Shown here: positions 945 through 15,180 of the stretch, one piece after another
Position numbering within the stretch: position 1 is the first letter of the stretch
How the letters are laid out: every line of letters begins with the position of its first letter
Origin: a virus
Lineage: Duplodnaviria; Heunggongvirae; Uroviricota; Caudoviricetes
Strand: one strand, 5' to 3'
Virus record (IMG/VR): IMGVR_UViG_2698536443_000012
Length of the DNA: 15,321 nt
The notes under the pieces: generated by a model
Seen by the model: only the letters and a program-made list of their open reading frames with translations
Told to the model about the DNA's origin: nothing
The model's database searches: none
Position numbers and translations under genes: made by a program

Positions 945-1133
945 TTATCCAGCCGGTATTTCGTTATTCAGGTTCAGCGATACTTTTTTTAACGGGAGGC
1001 ATTCACCGGGGATTTTTTGTTCGTCCCTTACCTGAATGCAGGATGACTTACTGTCATAAATTCCGGTAATCACATTTTGTGGCTCACCCGTTATAAGAAA
1101 AACGGTCATCACCAGTGCAAATGCTGAAGTCAC
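945..1133 (-). CDS. Small protein with hydrophobic N-terminus, YdfD-like (62 aa)
   Basis: GTG start overlaps the dicB stop (GTGA), suggesting translational coupling. N-terminal hydrophobic stretch SAFALVMTVFLITG. Size and position match the ydfD slot downstream of dicB. Confidence 0.5.
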   Translation of the reverse strand: MTSAFALVMTVFLITGEPQNVITGIYDSKSSCIQVRDEQKIPGECLPLKKVSLNLNNEIPAG

Positions 1134-1318
1134 TGCTGTTCTCCGATAATACCAAGTTCAAGAAGGGCAATTCTGGAAAGTATGGAATTATCATTGAGAA
1201 GATAAGGTTCATATTTTCTCATCTTAATGGCATCTTCCGTAAACTCCCGGTTACTGAGCAGAACACCAATATCAAAACAACCTTCAGACGTATTAACGTT
1301 TGGTAATAACGTTTCCAT
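1130..1318 (-). CDS. dicB: Cell division inhibitor DicB
   Basis: 62-aa ORF beginning METLLPNVNTSEGCF, matching my memory of E. coli DicB. AGGA RBS 7 nt upstream of the ATG at 1318. Lies just downstream of dicF. Confidence 0.8.
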   Translation of the reverse strand: METLLPNVNTSEGCFDIGVLLSNREFTEDAIKMRKYEPYLLNDNSILSRIALLELGIIGEQQ

Positions 1319-1487
1319 TATCGCGTCCTAAACAATGAATTTTGTGATGCGGTGCCTGGTGCCTCCAGGTGACGTTAACCAGTTAACAATTAACGCCGGA
1401 TACAGAGAATCCACCCATAACACTGTTTTTGGTTTTAACTGTTCCGCGTGCGCTCAGCCGCATTCACCACATCACAAAATTCACTTT

Positions 1488-1545
1488 AAAAAGGGCGGCA
1501 GAGCAGTCACGGAGTAAAACTGATACCGCCAAACGTCACCAGAAA
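1488..1545 (-). ncRNA. dicF: DicF small RNA (ftsZ-targeting antisense sRNA)
   Basis: Reverse complement of 1488-1545 reads TTTCTGGTGACGTTTGGCGGTATCAGTTTTACTCCGTGACTGCTCTGCCGCCCTTTTT, which matches the DicF sequence as I recall it and ends in a GC stem plus U-run. Exact processed ends cannot be set from sequence. Confidence 0.7.
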
Positions 1546-1878
1546 ATTGATAACAGAGGGCGTTGCAGCGGGGTTGTCACTTAAGCGTATGGTCAACCTG
1601 ACAACCCGGTGTCCTCAACGGGGAAGGAATAACCCCTCCATACTTACCGCCGCGCCATTTCGCGGATTGCCACAACCGGAAGCGCACGGTCGACGAAAAT
1701 TTAACGACAGGCTATCTATGAACCAGCTACCTCGCCGTGCGCTTTCGCGTTATGGTCTGACTTTTCAGAGAAATATCCTTTCAGTAAACTGTCAGTGCCG
1801 GATGTTCACCCGTGTCCGGCGCACGCACTCCACTTCACCCGTGGAGAACTCCTTAATTACCAACCCTCAGGAGGGTGA

Positions 1879-2112
1879 ATGTTAAAATCAACTCTTATTG
1901 CTAAATGCCTTTATCAAAATCGCATGGTAAGCAGCATTTCAATAGGCGAGTCTGCAGTTAAAAGTATTTTCGAAGAGTACTTTCCCGGGCATGATTTTAA
2001 TAAATGGAATACCAAATTACCGCCAGCAGTTTCAACGCGTATTCTGAAAGCAACCGAAAGAGCAAGTACAATTCGCGTTAACTATTTCATTAAAGATTTG
2101 TGGGATCTTTGA
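1879..2112 (+). CDS. Hypothetical protein (77 aa), AT-rich cargo gene
   Basis: ATG preceded by AGGAGG with 5-nt spacing (CTCAGGAGGGTGAATG). Protein-like composition. Markedly AT-rich relative to flanks. 3' end overlaps the convergent 135-aa ORF. Confidence 0.5.
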   Translation: MLKSTLIAKCLYQNRMVSSISIGESAVKSIFEEYFPGHDFNKWNTKLPPAVSTRILKATERASTIRVNYFIKDLWDL

Positions 2113-2497
2113 TATCCACAGAGCCTAAAGTATGTGCATATGGATGTGCTATTATGCGCCCTCGCAGATTTGCATCATTTTCTAAATTCACTGAACGAAA
2201 CAGGGCATCAACAAGGCTCTGTACAATGCAAAGGCAATCGAAGACTGTCGCCGTTTCTGTTTTGATTGATGAAAGAACATGGCCATTCACGCAAACAGAA
2301 ATTACCCGTTTATTAACATCGCTTTCCTGCTTTTGATTATCAGAACCATATAGCCCAGAAAAAGCATTGCGCACATTACGAACCATATTATCGATGGTTT
2401 CTTTTTCTGCGGTACTAAGGTCAAGAGTAGCCAGTTGTGAACGAACTATATTCGATGCCATTTCCTGTAATGGCGTTGGTAAATCTTTAAATTCCAT
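2090..2497 (-). CDS. Hypothetical protein (135 aa), AT-rich cargo gene
   Basis: ATG at 2497 with GAGG RBS about 7 nt upstream. No family recognised by eye. Downstream of the ydfC-like gene on the same strand. Confidence 0.55.
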   Translation of the reverse strand: MEFKDLPTPLQEMASNIVRSQLATLDLSTAEKETIDNMVRNVRNAFSGLYGSDNQKQESDVNKRVISVCVNGHVLSSIKTETATVFDCLCIVQSLVDALFRSVNLENDANLRGRIIAHPYAHTLGSVDIKDPTNL

Positions 2498-2519
2498 TAT
2501 TAGCCTCGTTGGTTAGCTA

Positions 2520-2738
2520 TTAACGTGGGTATGTAATCATTCTGGCAATGCTTAATGCCGCTGCTTTTTCCAGATTGGTGATATCCTGCTCCAGAGCGGA
2601 CAGATTTTCAGCCTGCTTAGCCCTGGCTTCATTGGCCCATTTCAGGTCCTGCACCGCCTTAATTTTCTGGTGCATCCACTCATAAAGTTCATCATCGGTA
2701 TAGTCTGGCGCGATGATGACGGGGTCTCGTTTCTGCAT
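2520..2738 (-). CDS. Small hypothetical protein (72 aa), YdfC-like by size and position
   Basis: ATG at 2738 with AAGGAG RBS about 6 nt upstream. Lies in the DicA-repressed leftward operon. The YdfC assignment rests on length and synteny only. Confidence 0.5.
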   Translation of the reverse strand: MQKRDPVIIAPDYTDDELYEWMHQKIKAVQDLKWANEARAKQAENLSALEQDITNLEKAAALSIARMITYPR

Positions 2739-2810
2739 GTCGGCTCCTTGTGGTTAGCGTTGCCTGCTTTTTAACCACGTCAGGCGAGGTGGTATCCTCT
2801 GAGGGGTCTG

Positions 2811-3167
2811 TTACTCGAGAGGAAATTGGTTATGAATACAATCAAGTTTTCTTGCCCAGAATGTGGTGGCTAAGTCTTTGACACATCCTTTAAGCCGCAG
2901 GGCTCTGACAGTTTCGCGGGAGCCATCTGCAAAAATTGTGGTCACCTTGTAACTGAAGATGAGTCCTCGCAGTTCGATGACGAAATCGTTGACAATATCT
3001 TCGGTGCACTCACCAGAGACTTTCTGAAGTAAAGGCGCATACCGCTTAGTTACCGCTCTGATAACTCTTACCTGTCCGGCAATGGCGCTGATATCAATAT
3101 AAAGCGCCATCGCTGTTTCTTTGCTGATCCCTGGACGCCTTCCATTCTGATGTTTGACTTCGCCCAC
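2811..3167 (-). CDS. Hypothetical protein (118 aa), first ORF of the leftward DicA-controlled operon
   Basis: GTG start at 3167 with GAGGA RBS about 7 nt upstream. About 75 nt downstream of a minus-strand promoter-like TTGACC-17-CTAAAT. No recognisable domain; could instead be two smaller genes (ydfA/ydfB-like). Confidence 0.4.
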   Translation of the reverse strand: MGEVKHQNGRRPGISKETAMALYIDISAIAGQVRVIRAVTKRYAPLLQKVSGECTEDIVNDFVIELRGLIFSYKVTTIFADGSRETVRALRLKGCVKDLATTFWARKLDCIHNQFPLE

Positions 3168-3239
3168 TGAGAAATCCTCTGCTTCCCCTTAACGCCGGGT
3201 AGCGGAACTGTTTGCTGAGAACACCGTGCGGTGTCTTGA

Positions 3240-3300
3240 TGAGTAGAATTTAGAATAGCCTAAGAGTTATGGTCAAGCTTTTTGTGTAGAAAAACCTAAG
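3240..3300 (-). promoter_or_regulatory. Candidate DicA-repressed leftward promoter (dicBp-like) with operator half-sites
   Basis: On the minus strand, -35 TTGACC (plus 3271-3276) and -10 CTAAAT (plus 3248-3253) with 17-bp spacer. Minus-strand CTTAGGTTTTTCTACA (plus 3285-3300) nearly repeats CTTAGGTTTCTCTACG in the dicA-dicC intergenic region. TTAG-N6-CTAA at 3250-3263. Confidence 0.4.
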
Positions 3301-3374
3301 CTTCTTGATGTAAAAAACACAAGTATTTGAAAGTTTGTGCTTTTTATTACAGAGAGTTGCGAAAAAAAGGGGGG

Positions 3375-3782
3375 TTATTTATTTGCGCTTCTTTTGCGAG
3401 CTTTGAGTAGTTCTTCAAAAAGTTTGTTGAAATTCTCAACTCGAGCACGCATCTCTGACAACAGAGCCTTTTGCTCTGACTCAGGCAGTGCGTCGAACAG
3501 TTGAAGCAACTCTTTTTGATCTTCTGTCAGATTGACTGGCTGATTATCTGGGATCGGTTCGCCTGGTTGCTTATCTTCATCTCCAAAAAGAAGCCAAGTC
3601 GGCGAGCACTGAAGCGCCTGGCTCAGTGCGAATAATCTCTTCCCCGCTGGCTGTGTTTCATCTCTTTCCCATTGAGAAATTGTTACGTGAGCCACTTTGA
3701 CCAGCTTACCTAATGCGGCCTGAGACAGTTTTAATTTTTTTCGCCTGTATAAGAGGCGAGCACCGAAGGTTTCGTTTTTCAT
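3375..3782 (-). CDS. dicA: Prophage repressor DicA (XRE-family HTH, cI-like)
   Basis: 135-aa ORF with HTH motif LSQAALGKLVKVAHVTISQWERDETQP and C-terminal ...ALPESEQ...EMRARVENFNKLFEELLKAR closely resembling E. coli DicA as I recall it. Divergent from dicC. Confidence 0.85.
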   Translation of the reverse strand: MKNETFGARLLYRRKKLKLSQAALGKLVKVAHVTISQWERDETQPAGKRLFALSQALQCSPTWLLFGDEDKQPGEPIPDNQPVNLTEDQKELLQLFDALPESEQKALLSEMRARVENFNKLFEELLKARKRSANK

Positions 3783-3850
3783 ATTAGGTAATTCTAATTT
3801 TTCTTGGCTTAGGTTTCTCTACGATCTAGTTTCCTTAGGAAAATCTAAGG
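3783..3850. promoter_or_regulatory. dicA-dicC intergenic operator/promoter region (three TTAGG-type sites)
   Basis: ATTAGGTAATTCTAAT (3783-3798), GCTTAGGTTTCTCTACG (about 3808-3825) and CCTTAGGAAAATCTAAGG (3833-3850). All share TTAGG/CTAA inverted half-sites and lie between divergent repressor and cro-like genes. Confidence 0.55.
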
Positions 3851-3858
3851 GGTTCGAT

Positions 3859-4086
3859 ATGTTGAAAATTGATGCTATAGCGTTTTTTGGCAGCAAAACA
3901 AAGCTTGCCAATGTCGCAGGAGTTAGGCTGGCAAGCGTTGCTGCATGGGGGGAACTGGTTCCTGAAGGTCGCGCGATGCGCCTGCAAGAGGCATCCGGCG
4001 GGGAACTTCAGTACGACCCCAAAGTTTATGACGAATATCGTAAGGCAAAGCGGGCGGGGCGGTTGAACAATGAAAATCACCACTGA
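3859..4086 (+). CDS. dicC: Cro-like regulator DicC
   Basis: 75-aa ORF MLKIDAIAFFGSKTKLANVAGVRLASVAAW...GRAMRLQEASGGELQYDPKVY, matching my memory of DicC. Divergent from dicA at the head of the rightward operon. Confidence 0.8.
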   Translation: MLKIDAIAFFGSKTKLANVAGVRLASVAAWGELVPEGRAMRLQEASGGELQYDPKVYDEYRKAKRAGRLNNENHH

Positions 4087-4621
4087 ACAGGTTTGTGAGG
4101 CTCTGGATACCTGGGTATGCCGACCAGGAATGACACAGGAGCAGGCGACGATATTAATCACGGAAGCATTCTGGGCTCTGAAAGAACGCCCGAACATCGA
4201 TGTTCAACGCGTCACGTTTAATGATGGCGAGGTTGATCAACGGGCGCTGGGCGTTAACCGGGTGAAGATATTCGAACGCTGGAAAGCTATCGACACCAGA
4301 GATAAGCGTGACAAATTCACGGCGCTGATTCCGGCAATTATGGAGGCTATCCGGATCAGCGATTTCAGATTGTATTGTGAAATTACTGACGGAAAAAGCA
4401 TTACGTACATGATCGCCGGGTTAAACAAAGAATATGGCGATGTGGTGGAGTCCGGGCTGCTTTTTGCGGATCCAGTTGTTGTGGAACGTGAGACTGACGA
4501 GCTTATAGAAAAAGCTATTGCTTTCAAGCACGCGTATCGTCAGCAATACCAATATTACTTTGCAGATAAACAAATGTCTGCCAGGGGTTCGTATGAGTAT
4601 CGATGCACTACGATGGGCTAA
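4070..4621 (+). CDS. YdaT-like (CII-like) regulatory protein
   Basis: 183-aa ORF overlapping the dicC 3' end by 17 nt. Segment TALIPAIMEAIRISDFRL resembles the YdaT family motif (KLIPAILAILPRELRHRL in Rac YdaT, from memory). Sits in the cII position. Confidence 0.55.
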   Translation: MKITTEQVCEALDTWVCRPGMTQEQATILITEAFWALKERPNIDVQRVTFNDGEVDQRALGVNRVKIFERWKAIDTRDKRDKFTALIPAIMEAIRISDFRLYCEITDGKSITYMIAGLNKEYGDVVESGLLFADPVVVERETDELIEKAIAFKHAYRQQYQYYFADKQMSARGSYEYRCTTMG

Positions 4622-5633
4622 AAAGGTGAAAACCGGCAGTTCATCCAGTAAGTCAGTATTGACCTGGCTTGCTGATATGTGCGGTGCCGATTTGTGTGCA
4701 TACCCGTCTGTATCTGCACTGGCAGAAGTAACGGAACTGAACAAAAAGACTGTGCAGGACAGCTTACGACACCTGATGGAGATTGGGTTAATTGTTGATA
4801 CCGGTGAGAGAAAAGGCAGAACAAAGCAAATTGTGGTGTACCGACTTATCGGTGTAGAAGAAAGTGTTGCCGAGCCTGAATACACCCAAAAACGGGAGTC
4901 TTTAAAGGTGGGTAAAATTGGTGCTGTTAATAAAAACAGTACCGAAAATGGTTATGTTTCAGCACAAAACAGACCCAAAAACAGAACTCTTAGCTGCATG
5001 GAAAATAACCAAAGACACCCAAATTTTCCATCAAAGACACCCAAAAACGGATCACGGAACCCAAAGGAACCCAAAGATCTAAACCCCACACATAACGCAC
5101 GCGAGAGTGCTCCGACCAGTGAGCAGGAAGTTTTGTCGTTACAGGCAGCCCCCCCTGTATTCCTGTATGGCCTGAGCGAACCCATCGGAAAATTCCCGAT
5201 GAGCGATAGCTGGTATCCGTCACGGGATTTTCGACGACGGGCTGCGTTGTGGGGGATGGCTTTGCCGGAGACAGAATTTACACCTGCTGAACTTGCCGCC
5301 TTCCGGGACTACTGGGCAGCGGAGGGGAAAGTGTTTACGCAGATTCAGTGGGAGCAGAAATTCGCCCGTCACGTAAATCACGTCAGGGCGCAGGTTAAAC
5401 CAGTCAGCAAAGGGGTAAACCATGCAGCAGCACCAGGTGGCACCGCATCACGGGCAGTTCAGGAAATTCGGGCAGCACGTGAGCAGTGGGAACGTGAAAA
5501 CGGATTTATCAGCGACGGAAACGGCCTGGAAGCTGTGGGAACTCATGGGGGTGGTTTATTCGAACCGCTGGATCCAGAAGAACGGGGCCGCACCTTCGAA
5601 GCTCTGGATTGCACAGATTGGCGCGATGACTGA
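4593..5633 (+). CDS. Phage replication initiator, lambda O-like (N-terminal winged helix)
   Basis: ATG at 4593 with AGGGG RBS. N-terminus SIDALRWAKK...SVSALAEVTELNKKTVQDSLRHLMEIGLIV is a winged-helix DNA-binding region typical of phage replisome organisers. Iteron-like repeats lie inside the coding region. Followed by a P-like gene. Confidence 0.65.
   Translation: MSIDALRWAKKVKTGSSSSKSVLTWLADMCGADLCAYPSVSALAEVTELNKKTVQDSLRHLMEIGLIVDTGERKGRTKQIVVYRLIGVEESVAEPEYTQKRESLKVGKIGAVNKNSTENGYVSAQNRPKNRTLSCMENNQRHPNFPSKTPKNGSRNPKEPKDLNPTHNARESAPTSEQEVLSLQAAPPVFLYGLSEPIGKFPMSDSWYPSRDFRRRAALWGMALPETEFTPAELAAFRDYWAAEGKVFTQIQWEQKFARHVNHVRAQVKPVSKGVNHAAAPGGTASRAVQEIRAAREQWERENGFISDGNGLEAVGTHGGGLFEPLDPEERGRTFEALDCTDWRDD
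4881..5076. repeat. Iteron-like direct repeats (putative origin) inside the O-like gene
   Basis: Repeated ACCCAAA(AAC) cores: ACACCCAAAAACGG at 4883, AGACCCAAAAACAG at 4971, AGACACCCAAA at 5013 and 5035, and tandem GGAACCCAAA at 5057 and 5067. Confidence 0.5.
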
Positions 5634-8505: not shown

Positions 8506-8808
8506 CCGGATGCCGCGCCAGCGGCATGTAGGGGCAGCTCACAAAACGGAAAAAATTGTACGCTAAGCCTCGCCAGGTGAACTGAATTCATTCCGATATG
8601 GGAATTCCCATATCGGGCGAAAACGGTTTGCTGTAACGGCAGAGTTAAGTAGGATTGCTGCGGGTGCTTGAGGCTATCTGCCTCGGGCATGAACACCAAC
8701 GGCAGATAGATAAAAGCCCCACCCGACTATAAATCGAAGTGAGGCCCCTATATGCTCGTCACATATAGATTGCCTCTTACGGACCGAAAGGTCAAGGAGA
8801 AGCAGGCT

Positions 8809-8964
8809 ATGAAGCAGCAAAAGGCGATGTTAATCGCCCTGATCGTCATCTGTTTAACCGTCATAGTGACGGCACTGGTAACGAGGAAAGACCTCTGCGA
8901 GGTACGAATCCGAACCGGCCAGACGGAGGTCGCTGTCTTCACAGCTTACGAACCTGAGGAGTAA
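8809..8964 (+). CDS. hokD: Hok-family membrane toxin (HokD/RelF-like), with in-frame upstream mok extension from 8752
   Basis: 51-aa ORF MKQQKAMLIALIVICLTVIVTALVTRKDLCEVRIRTGQTEVAVFTAYEPEE, the Hok family signature. The in-frame extension MLVTYRLPLTDRKVKEKQA with GAGG RBS fits a mok reading frame. Confidence 0.85.
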   Translation: MKQQKAMLIALIVICLTVIVTALVTRKDLCEVRIRTGQTEVAVFTAYEPEE

Positions 8965-9060: not shown

Positions 9061-9184
9061 TTTTCAACGCGTTTGAAGTTCCGGACGGCGCCGGAATAGA
9101 ATCAAAAATACTTAAGTAGCGCGCAGGGAGAAGAGGGATGGACCCCGAACAGGGGAGTGCTATTTATCTGGAAGGATTCTGTTG

Positions 9185-9442
9185 ATGAGAATCGAAGAAT
9201 TACGTGAAATTTTTAGTGAAGATGGCCTCTATACTGTGCGCGTTGAGAAGGGCGCTATTGTCAGCCACTGCCGTATTAAATGTTTACAGTCTCAACAAAG
9301 GAAGAGTGGAGCTGCGTTAATTCATTTTGTGGATGGGCTTGTGACGGATGGTTTTATTTTGCGTGCAAATGAATTTGTCACATCGTTGCCGTCTCTGAAA
9401 GAAGCTGGGATTAAGGCTGGTTTTTCTGCTTTTGAAGATTAG
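9185..9442 (+). CDS. Small prophage protein, Rem-like by position (85 aa)
   Basis: ATG at 9185 (the track's TTG at 9182 is an alternative) with GGAAGGA upstream. Lies between hok and the DUF968 gene as rem does in Qin. Function unknown. Confidence 0.5.
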   Translation: MRIEELREIFSEDGLYTVRVEKGAIVSHCRIKCLQSQQRKSGAALIHFVDGLVTDGFILRANEFVTSLPSLKEAGIKAGFSAFED

Positions 9443-12094: not shown

Positions 12095-12170
12095 GGCCCT
12101 TTAGCTCAGTGGTGAGAGCGAGCGACTCATAATCGCCAGGTCGCTGGTTCAAATCCAGCAAGGGCCACCA
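12095..12170 (+). tRNA. ileZ: tRNA-Ile2 (anticodon CAU, lysidine type), ileZ-like
   Basis: Hand-folded cloverleaf: acceptor GGCCCTT/AAGGGCC, D-arm GCTC...GAGC, anticodon loop CTCATAA, T-loop TTCAAAT, encoded CCA. Close to E. coli ileX as I recall it. Confidence 0.85.
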
Positions 12171-12171
12171 A

Positions 12172-12247
12172 CCGCCACTAGCCATCAGGAAAGAGCGTCA
12201 ACCCTTTAAGTTGAGTGTGCGAGGTTCGAGTCCCCGGTGGTGGTCCA
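12172..12247 (+). tRNA. tRNA-like gene, atypical (possible argN-like); identity unresolved
   Basis: Acceptor CCGCCAC/GTGGTGG with one GU pair, T-arm CGAGG-TTCGAGT-CCCCG, anticodon stem TCAAC/GTTGA with loop CCTTTAA (C at position 33, anticodon UUU by position), degenerate D-stem, encoded CCA. Confidence 0.45.
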
Positions 12248-12260
12248 TTATCGGTATTCT

Positions 12261-12334
12261 GCGTTGTTAGCTCAGCAGGACAGAGCAATTGCCTTCTAAG
12301 CAATCGGTCACTGGTTCGACTCCAGTACAACGCG
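12261..12334 (+). tRNA. tRNA-Arg (anticodon UCU), argO-like
   Basis: Acceptor GCGTTGT/ACAACGC, D-arm GCTC...GAGC, anticodon stem ATTGC/GCAAT with loop CTTCTAA, T-arm ACTGG-TTCGACT-CCAGT. No encoded CCA (CTA follows). Confidence 0.8.
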
Positions 12335-13868: not shown

Positions 13869-13943
13869 GGGTCAGTCGTATAAAGGTCATTACGGAAGGC
13901 TGTTAACCTTCTTATCGTGGTTCGAGTCCACGCTGTCCCGCCA
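13869..13943 (+). tRNA. tRNA-Asn-like (anticodon GUU)
   Basis: Acceptor GGGTCAG/CTGTCCC (one T-T mismatch), anticodon stem GAAGG/CCTTC with loop CTGTTAA, T-arm CGTGG-TTCGAGT-CCACG, encoded CCA. D-arm is weak (3 bp). Confidence 0.55.
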
Positions 13944-13948
13944 AACAT

Positions 13949-14024
13949 GCTGGTTTAGCTCCAATGGTAGAGCAACTGACTTGTAATCATCAGGTCGCCA
14001 GTTCGATTCCGGTAGCCGGCACCA
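13949..14024 (+). tRNA. tRNA-Thr-like (anticodon UGU), thrU-like with weakened anticodon stem
   Basis: Near-identical to E. coli thrU as I recall it, except the 3' anticodon-stem strand (TCATC instead of TCAGT) leaves only 3 canonical base pairs. Anticodon loop CTTGTAA, T-loop TTCGATT, encoded CCA. Confidence 0.55.
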
Positions 14025-14027
14025 TAT

Positions 14028-14102
14028 GCGGGTACCGTATAATGGCTATTACCTCAGCCTTCCAGGCTGATGATGCGGGTTCGATTCCCGCTACCCGCTC
14101 CA
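14028..14102 (+). tRNA. tRNA-Gly (anticodon UCC), glyT-like
   Basis: Sequence GCGGGTACCGTATAATGGCTATTACCTCAGCCTTCCAGGCTGATGATGCGGGTTCGATTCCCGCTACCCGCTCCA differs from E. coli glyT (from memory) at only a few positions. Perfect acceptor stem, encoded CCA. Confidence 0.8.
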
Positions 14103-14866: not shown

Positions 14867-15180
14867 TTTTTTTGTTTGCTGTTTATTAAAAACACTTCTG
14901 CATGGTGAATCCCCCTGTGCGGAGGGGCGATCAGCAACCAGGTATATGGGATAATCGCGGATTCAGGTGCTGATACTGAATTCACCGGGAGGCACCCGGC
15001 ACCATGCTTTGCCACAAAAGTGTTGTTTCTGTTTTTCTCAAACTATCATCATTATCCCTTTATTTCCGGCTGCGCATGGCGTGGCCTTTTTTTTACGACC
15101 AGCCACTGGCAGATGGCCATCCTGTAATTTGATTCCGGTTCCGGCTTTTTAACTCTGTTCCTGTACACGGGAGAAATTCG

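Follow-up and report, generated by a model that had tools for sequence, protein, structure and literature searches.

A Qin-like immunity module with predicted DicA/DicC operators at both early promoters of an EHEC-type Escherichia coli prophage

Introduction

Bejar, Bouche and Bouche are said to have described K-12 Qin in 1988 as a lambdoid-type immunity locus. Operators in this Escherichia coli prophage lie in the dicA-dicC intergenic region and at the leftward dicB-operon promoter, dicBp, where three are stated, and DicA and DicC form a bistable switch (PMC10448788). Deletion of dicA derepresses dicBp 22-fold, deletion of dicC does not derepress it, and Rem derepresses it 165-fold (PMC10448788). 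Silencing in K-12 is leaky, with about 1% of cells switching on spontaneously and DicF detectable in stationary phase (PMC10448788). The intergenic sites have been named Oc, Om and Oa; of these, Oc alone was bound by DicA when operators were assayed in vivo, Om and Oa being left unbound when cloned alone, and the same work has DicA activating its own gene and Cnu/H-NS influencing the dicA-dicC locus (PMC3441716). ChIP-seq of K-12 DicC gave its strongest signal to both sides of dicA and a TT(A/C/T)G...C(G/A/T)AA motif, and YjdC was found to repress DicA targets when DicA is absent (PMC11430063). Differential RNA-seq shows the K-12 dicA mRNA to lack a leader (PMC4681348), and a DicA site at dicB appears in the Reg-Seq paper as low-evidence and of unknown location (PMC7567609). 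In O157:H7, over-expression of DicA lowers dicB mRNA, and over-expression of DicC lowers dicA mRNA and raises dicB (PMC6915034); since O157:H7 carries several dicB copies, this qPCR is not locus-specific. In the related P22 system, the operator consensus ATTTAAGATATCTTAAAT consists of TTAAG half-sites around a centre of four bases left uncontacted by the protein (PMC5175364), and the repressor touches positions 2-7 and 12-17 of the 18-mer (PMC4267663).

Here we have analysed a 15,321-base stretch of phage DNA (the window), for which an initial annotation had proposed an immunity switch with repeated operators at two promoters. Our reading, to which we give a probability of roughly 0.87, is that positions 3242-3950 form an exchangeable Qin-like immunity module with operators shared by DicA and DicC and with a Rem-like inducer.

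Results

The window belongs to a Qin-like lambdoid prophage of EHEC-type E. coli. Over positions 2000-4700 it differs by a single mismatch from chromosomes of O55:H7, O145:H28, O26 and O103, and the "PPompW" prophages of Shiga-toxin strains carry the same immunity region, annotated there as dicA/dicC. Of 5,426 complete E. coli genomes, about 750 carry the window allele. Furthermore, the published O157:H7 dicA and dicC primers (PMC6915034) match the window exactly at both gene ends, so this allele is one that has already been studied genetically in O157:H7. The gene identities given in the initial annotation hold (Table 1); dicA, dicC, rem, DicF and dicB are all intact, and pseudogenes are present elsewhere in the prophage.

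Table 1. Genes and regulatory features of the window (operator, promoter and terminator assignments are predicted)
Feature	Position	Strand	Remarks
DUF1482/ydfD-like gene	945-1133	-	
Operon under the leftward promoter	945-3110	-	99-aa ORF, ydfC, 135-aa ORF, DicF, dicB, DUF1482/ydfD-like gene
dicB	1130-1318	-	Pfam DicB; downstream on dicA strand
DicF	1493-1544	-	Rfam, 76.7 bits; downstream on dicA strand
77-aa ORF	1879-2112		opposite strand to dicB operon
135-aa ORF before DicF	2090-2497	-	
ydfC	2520-2738	-	
99-aa ORF	2811-3110	-	first gene of leftward operon
5' leader of dicB operon	3150-3241	-	left boundary of exchangeable immunity module; 5' hairpin 3219-3235
dicB-operon promoter (PL equivalent)	3247-3276	-	-35 TTGACC 3276-3271, 18-bp spacer, -10 TAAATT 3252-3247
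OL-proximal operator	3250-3263	-	TTAGGCTATTCTAA; full core match, inside promoter spacer, overlaps -10
OL-distal operator	3286-3299	-	TTAGGTTTTTCTAC; begins 23 bp upstream of -35 start; site of the initial annotation
Terminator-like A/U-rich hairpin with U run	3311-3346	-	inverted repeat between dicA stop codon and leftward promoter
dicA-like immunity repressor	3375-3782	-	135 aa, HTH_3; 63% identity to K-12 DicA over 131 aa
Oa-equivalent operator (OR3-like)	3784-3797	+	TTAGGTAATTCTAA; ends 1 base from dicA ATG
dicC promoter (PR equivalent)	3804-3832	+	-35 TTGGCT 3804-3809, 17-bp spacer, -10 TAGTTT 3827-3832
Om-equivalent operator	3809-3822	+	TTAGGTTTCTCTAC; inside dicC promoter spacer, overlaps last base of -35
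Oc-equivalent operator, best dyad	3835-3848	+	TTAGGAAAATCTAA; just downstream of dicC promoter -10
dicC-like Cro-type regulator	3859-4086	+	Pfam P22_Cro, 3e-13; 83% identity to K-12 DicC; divergent from dicA
YdaT-family gene after dicC	4070-4621		cII position
Rem homologue, candidate antirepressor	9182-9442	+	73% identity to K-12 Rem

The likeness to K-12 Qin extends across the whole module. The two share gene order and orientation, three intergenic sites corresponding to Oc, Om and Oa, a leaderless-type dicA start and, downstream of dicA, a TTGACC promoter that has one site upstream of it and another within its spacer; the operon has the same leader, and ydfC, DicF, dicB, a ydfD-like gene and a Rem homologue are common to both. 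The immunity allele is nevertheless a different one, with a DicA that is diverged to the extent given in Table 1, a different DicC helix-turn-helix, and TTAGG/TTAGA half-sites in place of TTAGT/TTAGC. In the operon, the 99-aa ORF replaces ydfA/ydfB and two extra ORFs precede DicF, and the prophage retains replication and late-regulation genes, unlike K-12 Qin. We considered the 99-aa product as an N-like antiterminator and rejected this assignment: it has no arginine-rich N-terminus, no Pfam match, and matches only a PHROG of unknown function.

The DicA of the window consists of a P22 C2-like helix-turn-helix N-terminal domain followed by a short C-terminal helical part. A search of the PDB aligned its first 68 residues to the P22 C2 repressor, in the N-terminal domain (E = 1e-21), and the recognition helices read AHVTISQWERD in the window and SNVAISQWERS in P22 C2. 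A Pfam search of the protein returned HTH_3/helix-turn-helix families only and no Peptidase_S24 self-cleavage domain, which sets it apart from the 216-aa P22 C2 (PMC10448788). In DicC, changes relative to K-12 are concentrated in the N-terminal helix-turn-helix, with the C-terminal 45 aa common to all alleles.

Comparison with other lambdoid switches places the locus among Qin-type modules. P22 immC resembles the window in its homologous repressor N-terminal domain, its P22_Cro-family Cro and its 5-bp half-sites around 4 bases, but the half-site sequence differs, and the tandem leftward array of P22 contrasts with two window sites split by the -35 element. Lambda cI/cro likewise has the repressor and leftward early promoter co-directional with a divergent Cro-type gene, operators shared at both early promoters, a leaderless repressor mRNA and bistable behaviour, but its operator sequence is unrelated and its repressor carries a self-cleavage domain. 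In the racR/ydaS/ydaT region of Rac, too, the repressor is short and has no cleavage domain, its mRNA is leaderless (PMC4681348), and the divergent gene is Cro-like, with one of the YdaT family after it; the repressor family and operators of that region differ from those of the window. Thus, of the traits of classical lambda/P22 switches, the window has the same operator family at both early promoters, and has neither three tandem leftward operators nor an S24 domain in DicA; of the Qin-type traits, it has the short repressor, divergent dicC, three intergenic sites, PL-like promoter and Rem homologue.

The operator motif itself is sharply confined. The core TTAGG-N4-TCTA(A/C), or TTAGGNNNNTCTAM, occurs exactly five times in the 15,321 bases, where 0.02 copies are expected, and none of 200 shuffles reached five. 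A motif search had been proposed in the initial annotation, and its outcome is clear: all five copies fall in two regulatory regions, three between dicA and dicC and two at the promoter downstream of dicA, and chance can be excluded as the origin of this cluster. These five sites have 0-1 mismatch; every other match in the window carries at least two. One such two-mismatch copy lies a short way upstream of the dicB ATG, at 1318-1331; because four unrelated two-mismatch copies occur in the window, we judged it to be due to chance.

All five sites have a 5+4+5 geometry, with TTAGG/TTAGA half-sites around four central bases. The three inverted-repeat sites that the initial annotation had described between the divergent dicA and dicC are present within 1-2 bases of where it placed them (as 18-mers, 3782-3799, 3807-3824 and 3833-3850), and the starts of the cores are spaced by 25 and 26 bp. 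The strongest symmetry is found next to dicC, where a perfect dyad with 6-bp arms at 3833-3850 (CCTTAG-N6-CTAAGG, in extended form CCTTAG-GAAAAT-CTAAGG) encloses the Oc-equivalent; this site occupies the same position as K-12 Oc, covers the expected dicC start site and the ribosome-binding site, and has an A-tract centre, the type to which the P22 repressor binds best (PMC4267663). The Om-equivalent fits the motif, yet its dyad symmetry is poor, with three of five symmetric pairs and one degenerate half-site; it is unchanged across seven distinct window-type sequences of the dicA-dicC region. The Oa-equivalent covers a TAGAAT -10-like hexamer on the minus strand (3796-3791).

At the leftward promoter, the near-identical minus-strand element noted previously at 3285-3300 is also borne out, with 15 of 16 bases (3286-3301) identical to the middle intergenic site (3807-3822) in a search for inverted repeats. 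The corresponding core at 3286-3299 is real, and is unchanged across 13 distinct window-type leftward-region sequences, but the better site, at 3250-3263, had been missed. It is this second site, rather than 3286-3299, that is probably the main site of repression at the leftward promoter. The two lie 36 bp apart (about 3.4 helical turns) on either side of the -35 element, a distance with no obvious cooperative spacing, and a mismatch search of the leftward promoter found no third operator, even at 2-3 mismatches.

The promoters into which these sites are set are likewise predicted, as are the start sites and the assignment of proteins to individual operators. For the leftward promoter, proposed earlier as TTGACC-17-CTAAAT, the TTGACC stands; for the -10 element, a consensus promoter scan picks TAAATT at 18 bp, which we prefer for its A at position 2 and its alignment with the TAATCT of K-12 dicBp, CTAAAT with a 17-bp spacer being kept as possible. 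The dicC promoter would lie at 3804-3832, in alignment with K-12 TTGACT-17-TATCTT, and all other loci of the window allele have TTGACT as its -35 element. No Shine-Dalgarno sequence precedes dicA, which fits the leaderless dicA mRNA of K-12 (PMC4681348); by analogy, the window dicA mRNA is expected to be leaderless and to start at 3782.

Between dicA and the leftward promoter, the hairpin at 3311-3346 has a predicted RNA fold of -12.5 kcal/mol (z = -3.1), and other alleles have hairpins of their own at the matching position; it probably terminates dicA transcripts ahead of the leftward promoter. Downstream, the dicB-operon leader is identical or nearly identical across four immunity types including K-12, and the promoter and operators differ. 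As a whole this leader folds no better than shuffled sequences (z = -0.12), and Rfam gave no match in 3050-3900, leader included, at E up to 1. A simple scan found no minus-strand terminator between the leftward promoter and dicB, so transcripts may plausibly run on into DicF and dicB, as they do in K-12 (PMC10448788).

An exact 35-base stretch of this leader, used as a pattern, retrieved 120 IMG/VR loci, among which only one genome occurs twice, with the same allele both times. Four DicA alleles stand behind the one leader: the window type, the K-12 type, and types whose DicA starts with MDTRTLGQRV or MNEKTLGQRIR. The layout is alike in all four. Each has a good dyad adjoining dicC, a weaker site in the spacer of the dicC promoter, a site that stops 1-2 bases short of a dicA ATG lacking a Shine-Dalgarno sequence, a hairpin after dicA, and two sites bracketing the leftward -35, which is itself conserved in three of the alleles and reads TTGCCT in the fourth. 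The proximal leftward site always lies at +12 or +13 from the -35 start, and the two leftward sites are always 35-36 bp apart, start to start.

The half-sites change with the allele within this fixed layout: TTAGR-N4-YCTAA in the window and MDTRTLGQRV types, TTAG(T/C)-N4-(G/A)CTAA in the K-12 type, and TTGAG-N4-CTCAA in the MNEKTLGQRIR type. At both promoters these operator classes track the DicA recognition helix and the DicC helix-turn-helix; indeed, the two alleles that have the same operators also have the same recognition helix, AHVTISQWERDE, and the same DicC helix-turn-helix. We further used the dicC-proximal dyad (Oc) of each allele as a probe against the leftward regions, counting positions from the -35 start and comparing with 5,000 shuffles. 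In their own leftward regions, the window-type probe found its best matches at +13 and -23 (0 and 1 mismatches), the MDTRTLGQRV type at -24 and +12 (0 and 1), and the MNEKTLGQRIR type at -23 and +13 (1 and 2), with no shuffle as good in any of the three. The K-12 probe found only the site at +12 (1 mismatch), its second best being an unrelated site at -51 (4 mismatches), and 38 of 5,000 shuffles did as well; the recognisable distal site of K-12, TTAGCTATAGCATA at -23, has a degenerate right half. On foreign alleles the Oc probes met 2-4 mismatches; the pair of alleles with a common helix was the exception. The 13 distinct window-allele leftward sequences do not vary in either operator, the -35 or the -10, and are hypervariable over the seven bases that separate the -35 from the proximal operator. 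Fixed positions, co-variation with the allele and invariant islands together therefore support the view that the module's allele-specific proteins recognise the sites at both promoters, as judged from sequence comparison.

Rem showed no such co-variation with the DicA allele, both Rem types occurring with several alleles. Allele-specific antirepression by Rem was for this reason rejected.

Separately, the window and the PPompW_14040 prophage differ at 2 of 951 positions, both of which fall in -35 hexamers. One is G3807, which gives the dicC promoter TTGGCT instead of TTGACT; the other is C3274, where the leftward promoter reads TTGACC in the window and TTAACC in PPompW. In exact 80-mer counts over the 5,426 complete E. 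coli genomes, the window form of the dicC promoter occurs in none and TTGACT in 684, and the leftward TTGACC and TTAACC forms occur in 419 and 29, respectively. Weaker early promoters may be under selection in resident prophages, which could account for these -35 differences; the private G3807 may also be a sequencing error.

Discussion

The proposed mechanism for this module is that of a Qin-type switch. The short, P22 C2-type DicA would bind as a dimer to operators of 14-18 bp with the core TTAGR-N4-YCTAA. At Oc it would block the dicC promoter at its start site, and Om would place a second dimer in the spacer of that promoter; Oa overlaps the predicted promoter of the leaderless dicA mRNA, and would serve both negative autoregulation and repression by DicC. 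On the other side of dicA, the two sites bracketing the -35 would keep the dicB operon off, including its ORFs, DicF and DicB. Since 3250-3263 overlaps the -10 element, DicA bound there would exclude RNA polymerase. DicC, as the Cro analogue, very likely uses the same sites as DicA, and through them would shut off dicA to yield a bistable switch.

As for induction, DicA lacks a self-cleavage domain, a Rem homologue is present, and the Rem of K-12 derepresses dicBp 165-fold, which makes antirepression the likely route. The inducer would then be the Rem-like product of 9182-9442 rather than RecA-driven cleavage; induction is thus expected to follow the style of Gifsy-type prophages (PMC10448788), not that of lambda.

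Control by DicA of both its divergent partner and the co-directional operon, as the initial annotation had it, is supported by the co-variation described above and by the over-expression results for the window allele in O157:H7, as well as, by analogy, by the 22-fold effect of dicA deletion in K-12. Its further statement that the cargo genes, dicF and dicB would be held silent fares well as regards repression, but silence is too strong a word given the roughly 1% of K-12 cells that switch on (PMC10448788).

Which of the five sites DicA occupies is a finer question. DicA binding is predicted from sequence at all of them, with the greatest reserve for the weaker, TCTAC-type sites at 3809-3822 and 3286-3299; because K-12 Om and Oa alone were left unbound by DicA in vivo, these may not be occupied alone. 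A tentative alternative, which we hold to be unlikely though the most serious of those considered, is that only the good dyads work for DicA (Oc at 3835-3848, the site at 3250-3263, and perhaps Oa). DicA alone would then not bind the TCTAC elements, which could be auxiliary sites filled cooperatively, sites preferred by DicC, or a promoter element, e.g., an upstream A/T-rich one. The K-12 assay, in which Oc was bound and Om and Oa were not (PMC3441716), points this way, as do the degenerate half-site in each of the TCTAC copies and the distal leftward site, which in every allele is either a poorer match to its own Oc or half degenerate. However, the TCTAC elements are invariant (across the 7 dicA-dicC and 13 leftward variants) where their flanks vary, the two copies are nearly identical to each other, and their positions are fixed in four alleles with a sequence that shifts with the allele. 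Together, these observations argue for recognition by a protein over a generic promoter element.

It is also conceivable, although improbable, that the sites are mainly targets of DicC and that the dicB operon is silenced chiefly by H-NS/Cnu or the host regulator YjdC. This would accommodate the K-12 DicC ChIP-seq signal, strongest on both sides of dicA, and the repression of DicA targets by YjdC when DicA is missing (PMC11430063), along with the influence of Cnu/H-NS on the locus (PMC3441716). It is at odds with the effects of deletion in K-12, where loss of dicA raises dicBp 22-fold and loss of dicC does not derepress it (PMC10448788). Moreover, the half-sites change in step not only with DicC but also with the DicA recognition helix. 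In lambdoid switches the repressor and the Cro-type protein share operators, so that binding by DicC is no argument against binding by DicA. That the repeats are mere relics of descent or recombination between promoter regions in a decaying prophage, with no regulatory role, is barely credible: the pseudogenes elsewhere in the prophage and the private down-type change from TTGACT to TTGGCT in the dicC -35 would suit it, but none of dicA, dicC, rem, DicF and dicB is disrupted, about 750 E. coli genomes and the IMG/VR loci keep the operators as conserved islands, and the window allele responds when DicA and DicC are over-expressed in O157:H7 (PMC6915034).

The model of a DicA/DicC switch acting at both promoters is thus right, and it is already known, both for the family and for the window allele; the accepted picture of the dicA/dicC system is unchanged by our results. 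Our additions are modest, namely an explicit operator set that includes the promoter-internal site, and the four-allele co-variation. By the latter, the DicA/DicC site at dicBp, whose location was unknown in Reg-Seq (PMC7567609), is located by sequence.

More speculative, and in our view rather doubtful, is the combined proposal that the two leftward sites act as a clamp across the -35 and that the repressor of one prophage silences the dicB operons of co-resident prophages in EHEC. With its two sites 35-36 bp apart, the leftward promoter departs from the tandem OL arrays found in lambda and P22. If true, the clamp would be a distinct geometry, in which DicA dimers trap or wrap the -35 region, or in which DicA and DicC have separate roles at the two sites. 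Cross-silencing among co-resident prophages might occur, since the window and MDTRTLGQRV types share recognition helix, DicC helix-turn-helix and operators.

Exact operators for a common allele ease the design of reporter, EMSA and cross-immunity experiments. The switch that they serve decides whether the division inhibitors DicB and DicF are expressed in a pathogenic E. coli cell, and DicB and DicF also touch phage resistance, metabolism and, in EHEC, virulence regulation.

Edges of the immunity module

We find that the exchangeable immunity module has a sharp left edge, marked by the dicB-operon 5' leader, a stretch that is identical in four different immunity alleles. This leader, which starts with a hairpin, might act as a signal for RNA processing or for antitermination; an Rfam search of the leader returned no match, and the fold of the leader as a whole was no better than those of shuffles. 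The right edge lies within dicC, at about position 3950 of the window: the first ~30 codons, which encode the helix-turn-helix, are allele-specific, and the last 45 codons are common to all four alleles.

Coordinates of features discussed in the text
Feature	Position (nt)	Strand
Operator-core copy with two mismatches, TTAGGACGCGATAA	1318-1331	-
77-aa ORF	1879-2112	+
dicB-operon leader	3150-3241	-
Hairpin GACACCGCACGGTGTTC at start of leader	3219-3235	-
A/U-rich hairpin	3311-3346	-
Operator nearest dicA	3784-3797	
TAGAAT hexamer	3796-3791	- (dicA strand)
Adhesin gene paa	7715-8473	
hok/sok toxin-antitoxin locus (sok RNA)	8662-8811	
Rem homologue	9182-9442	+
tRNA genes (n=5)	12095-12334 and 13869-14099	
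sRNA STnc100	14871-15043	

Promoters and operators

Between the window and PPompW_14040, a prophage carrying the same immunity region, only 2 of 951 bases differ (positions 3807 and 3274), and both fall inside -35 hexamers. G3807 gives the dicC promoter of the window a -35 of TTGGCT, where every other locus of this allele has TTGACT; across 5,426 complete E. coli genomes, the 80-mer containing TTGGCT has no exact copy, and its TTGACT version is found exactly in 684. At position 3274 the window retains TTGACC, and TTAACC is found at the dicB-operon promoter in 29 genomes. These differences may reflect selection favouring weaker early promoters; alternatively, G3807 may be a sequencing error.

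The operator nearest dicA ends 1 base from the ATG, whose A is at 3782, and a Shine-Dalgarno sequence is absent before this ATG; both features recur in all four alleles. This arrangement fits the report of a leaderless dicA mRNA in K-12 (PMC4681348). The stretch separating dicA from the leftward promoter holds an A/U-rich hairpin (z = -3.1) bordered by runs of A and of U, which is likely a terminator that keeps dicA transcription out of the dicB operon; in the other alleles, different hairpins occupy the equivalent position. The degenerate operator-core copy directly upstream of the dicB start codon is probably a chance occurrence, since four unrelated copies with two mismatches are found in the window.

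Cargo and the Rem homologue

Running against the otherwise leftward dicB operon, between a 135-aa ORF and DicF, is a 77-aa ORF that overlaps the end of the former, is annotated in RefSeq and belongs to a PHROG of unknown function. Elsewhere in the window, paa, hok/sok, the five tRNA genes and STnc100 constitute cargo typical for EHEC lambdoid prophages. Directly past hokD/sok, the window encodes a Rem homologue that is 73% identical to the K-12 antirepressor. Across related loci we observe two Rem sequence types, each with several DicA alleles; judging from these pairings, Rem therefore appears not to be allele-specific, and its target may be the conserved C-terminal half of DicA.
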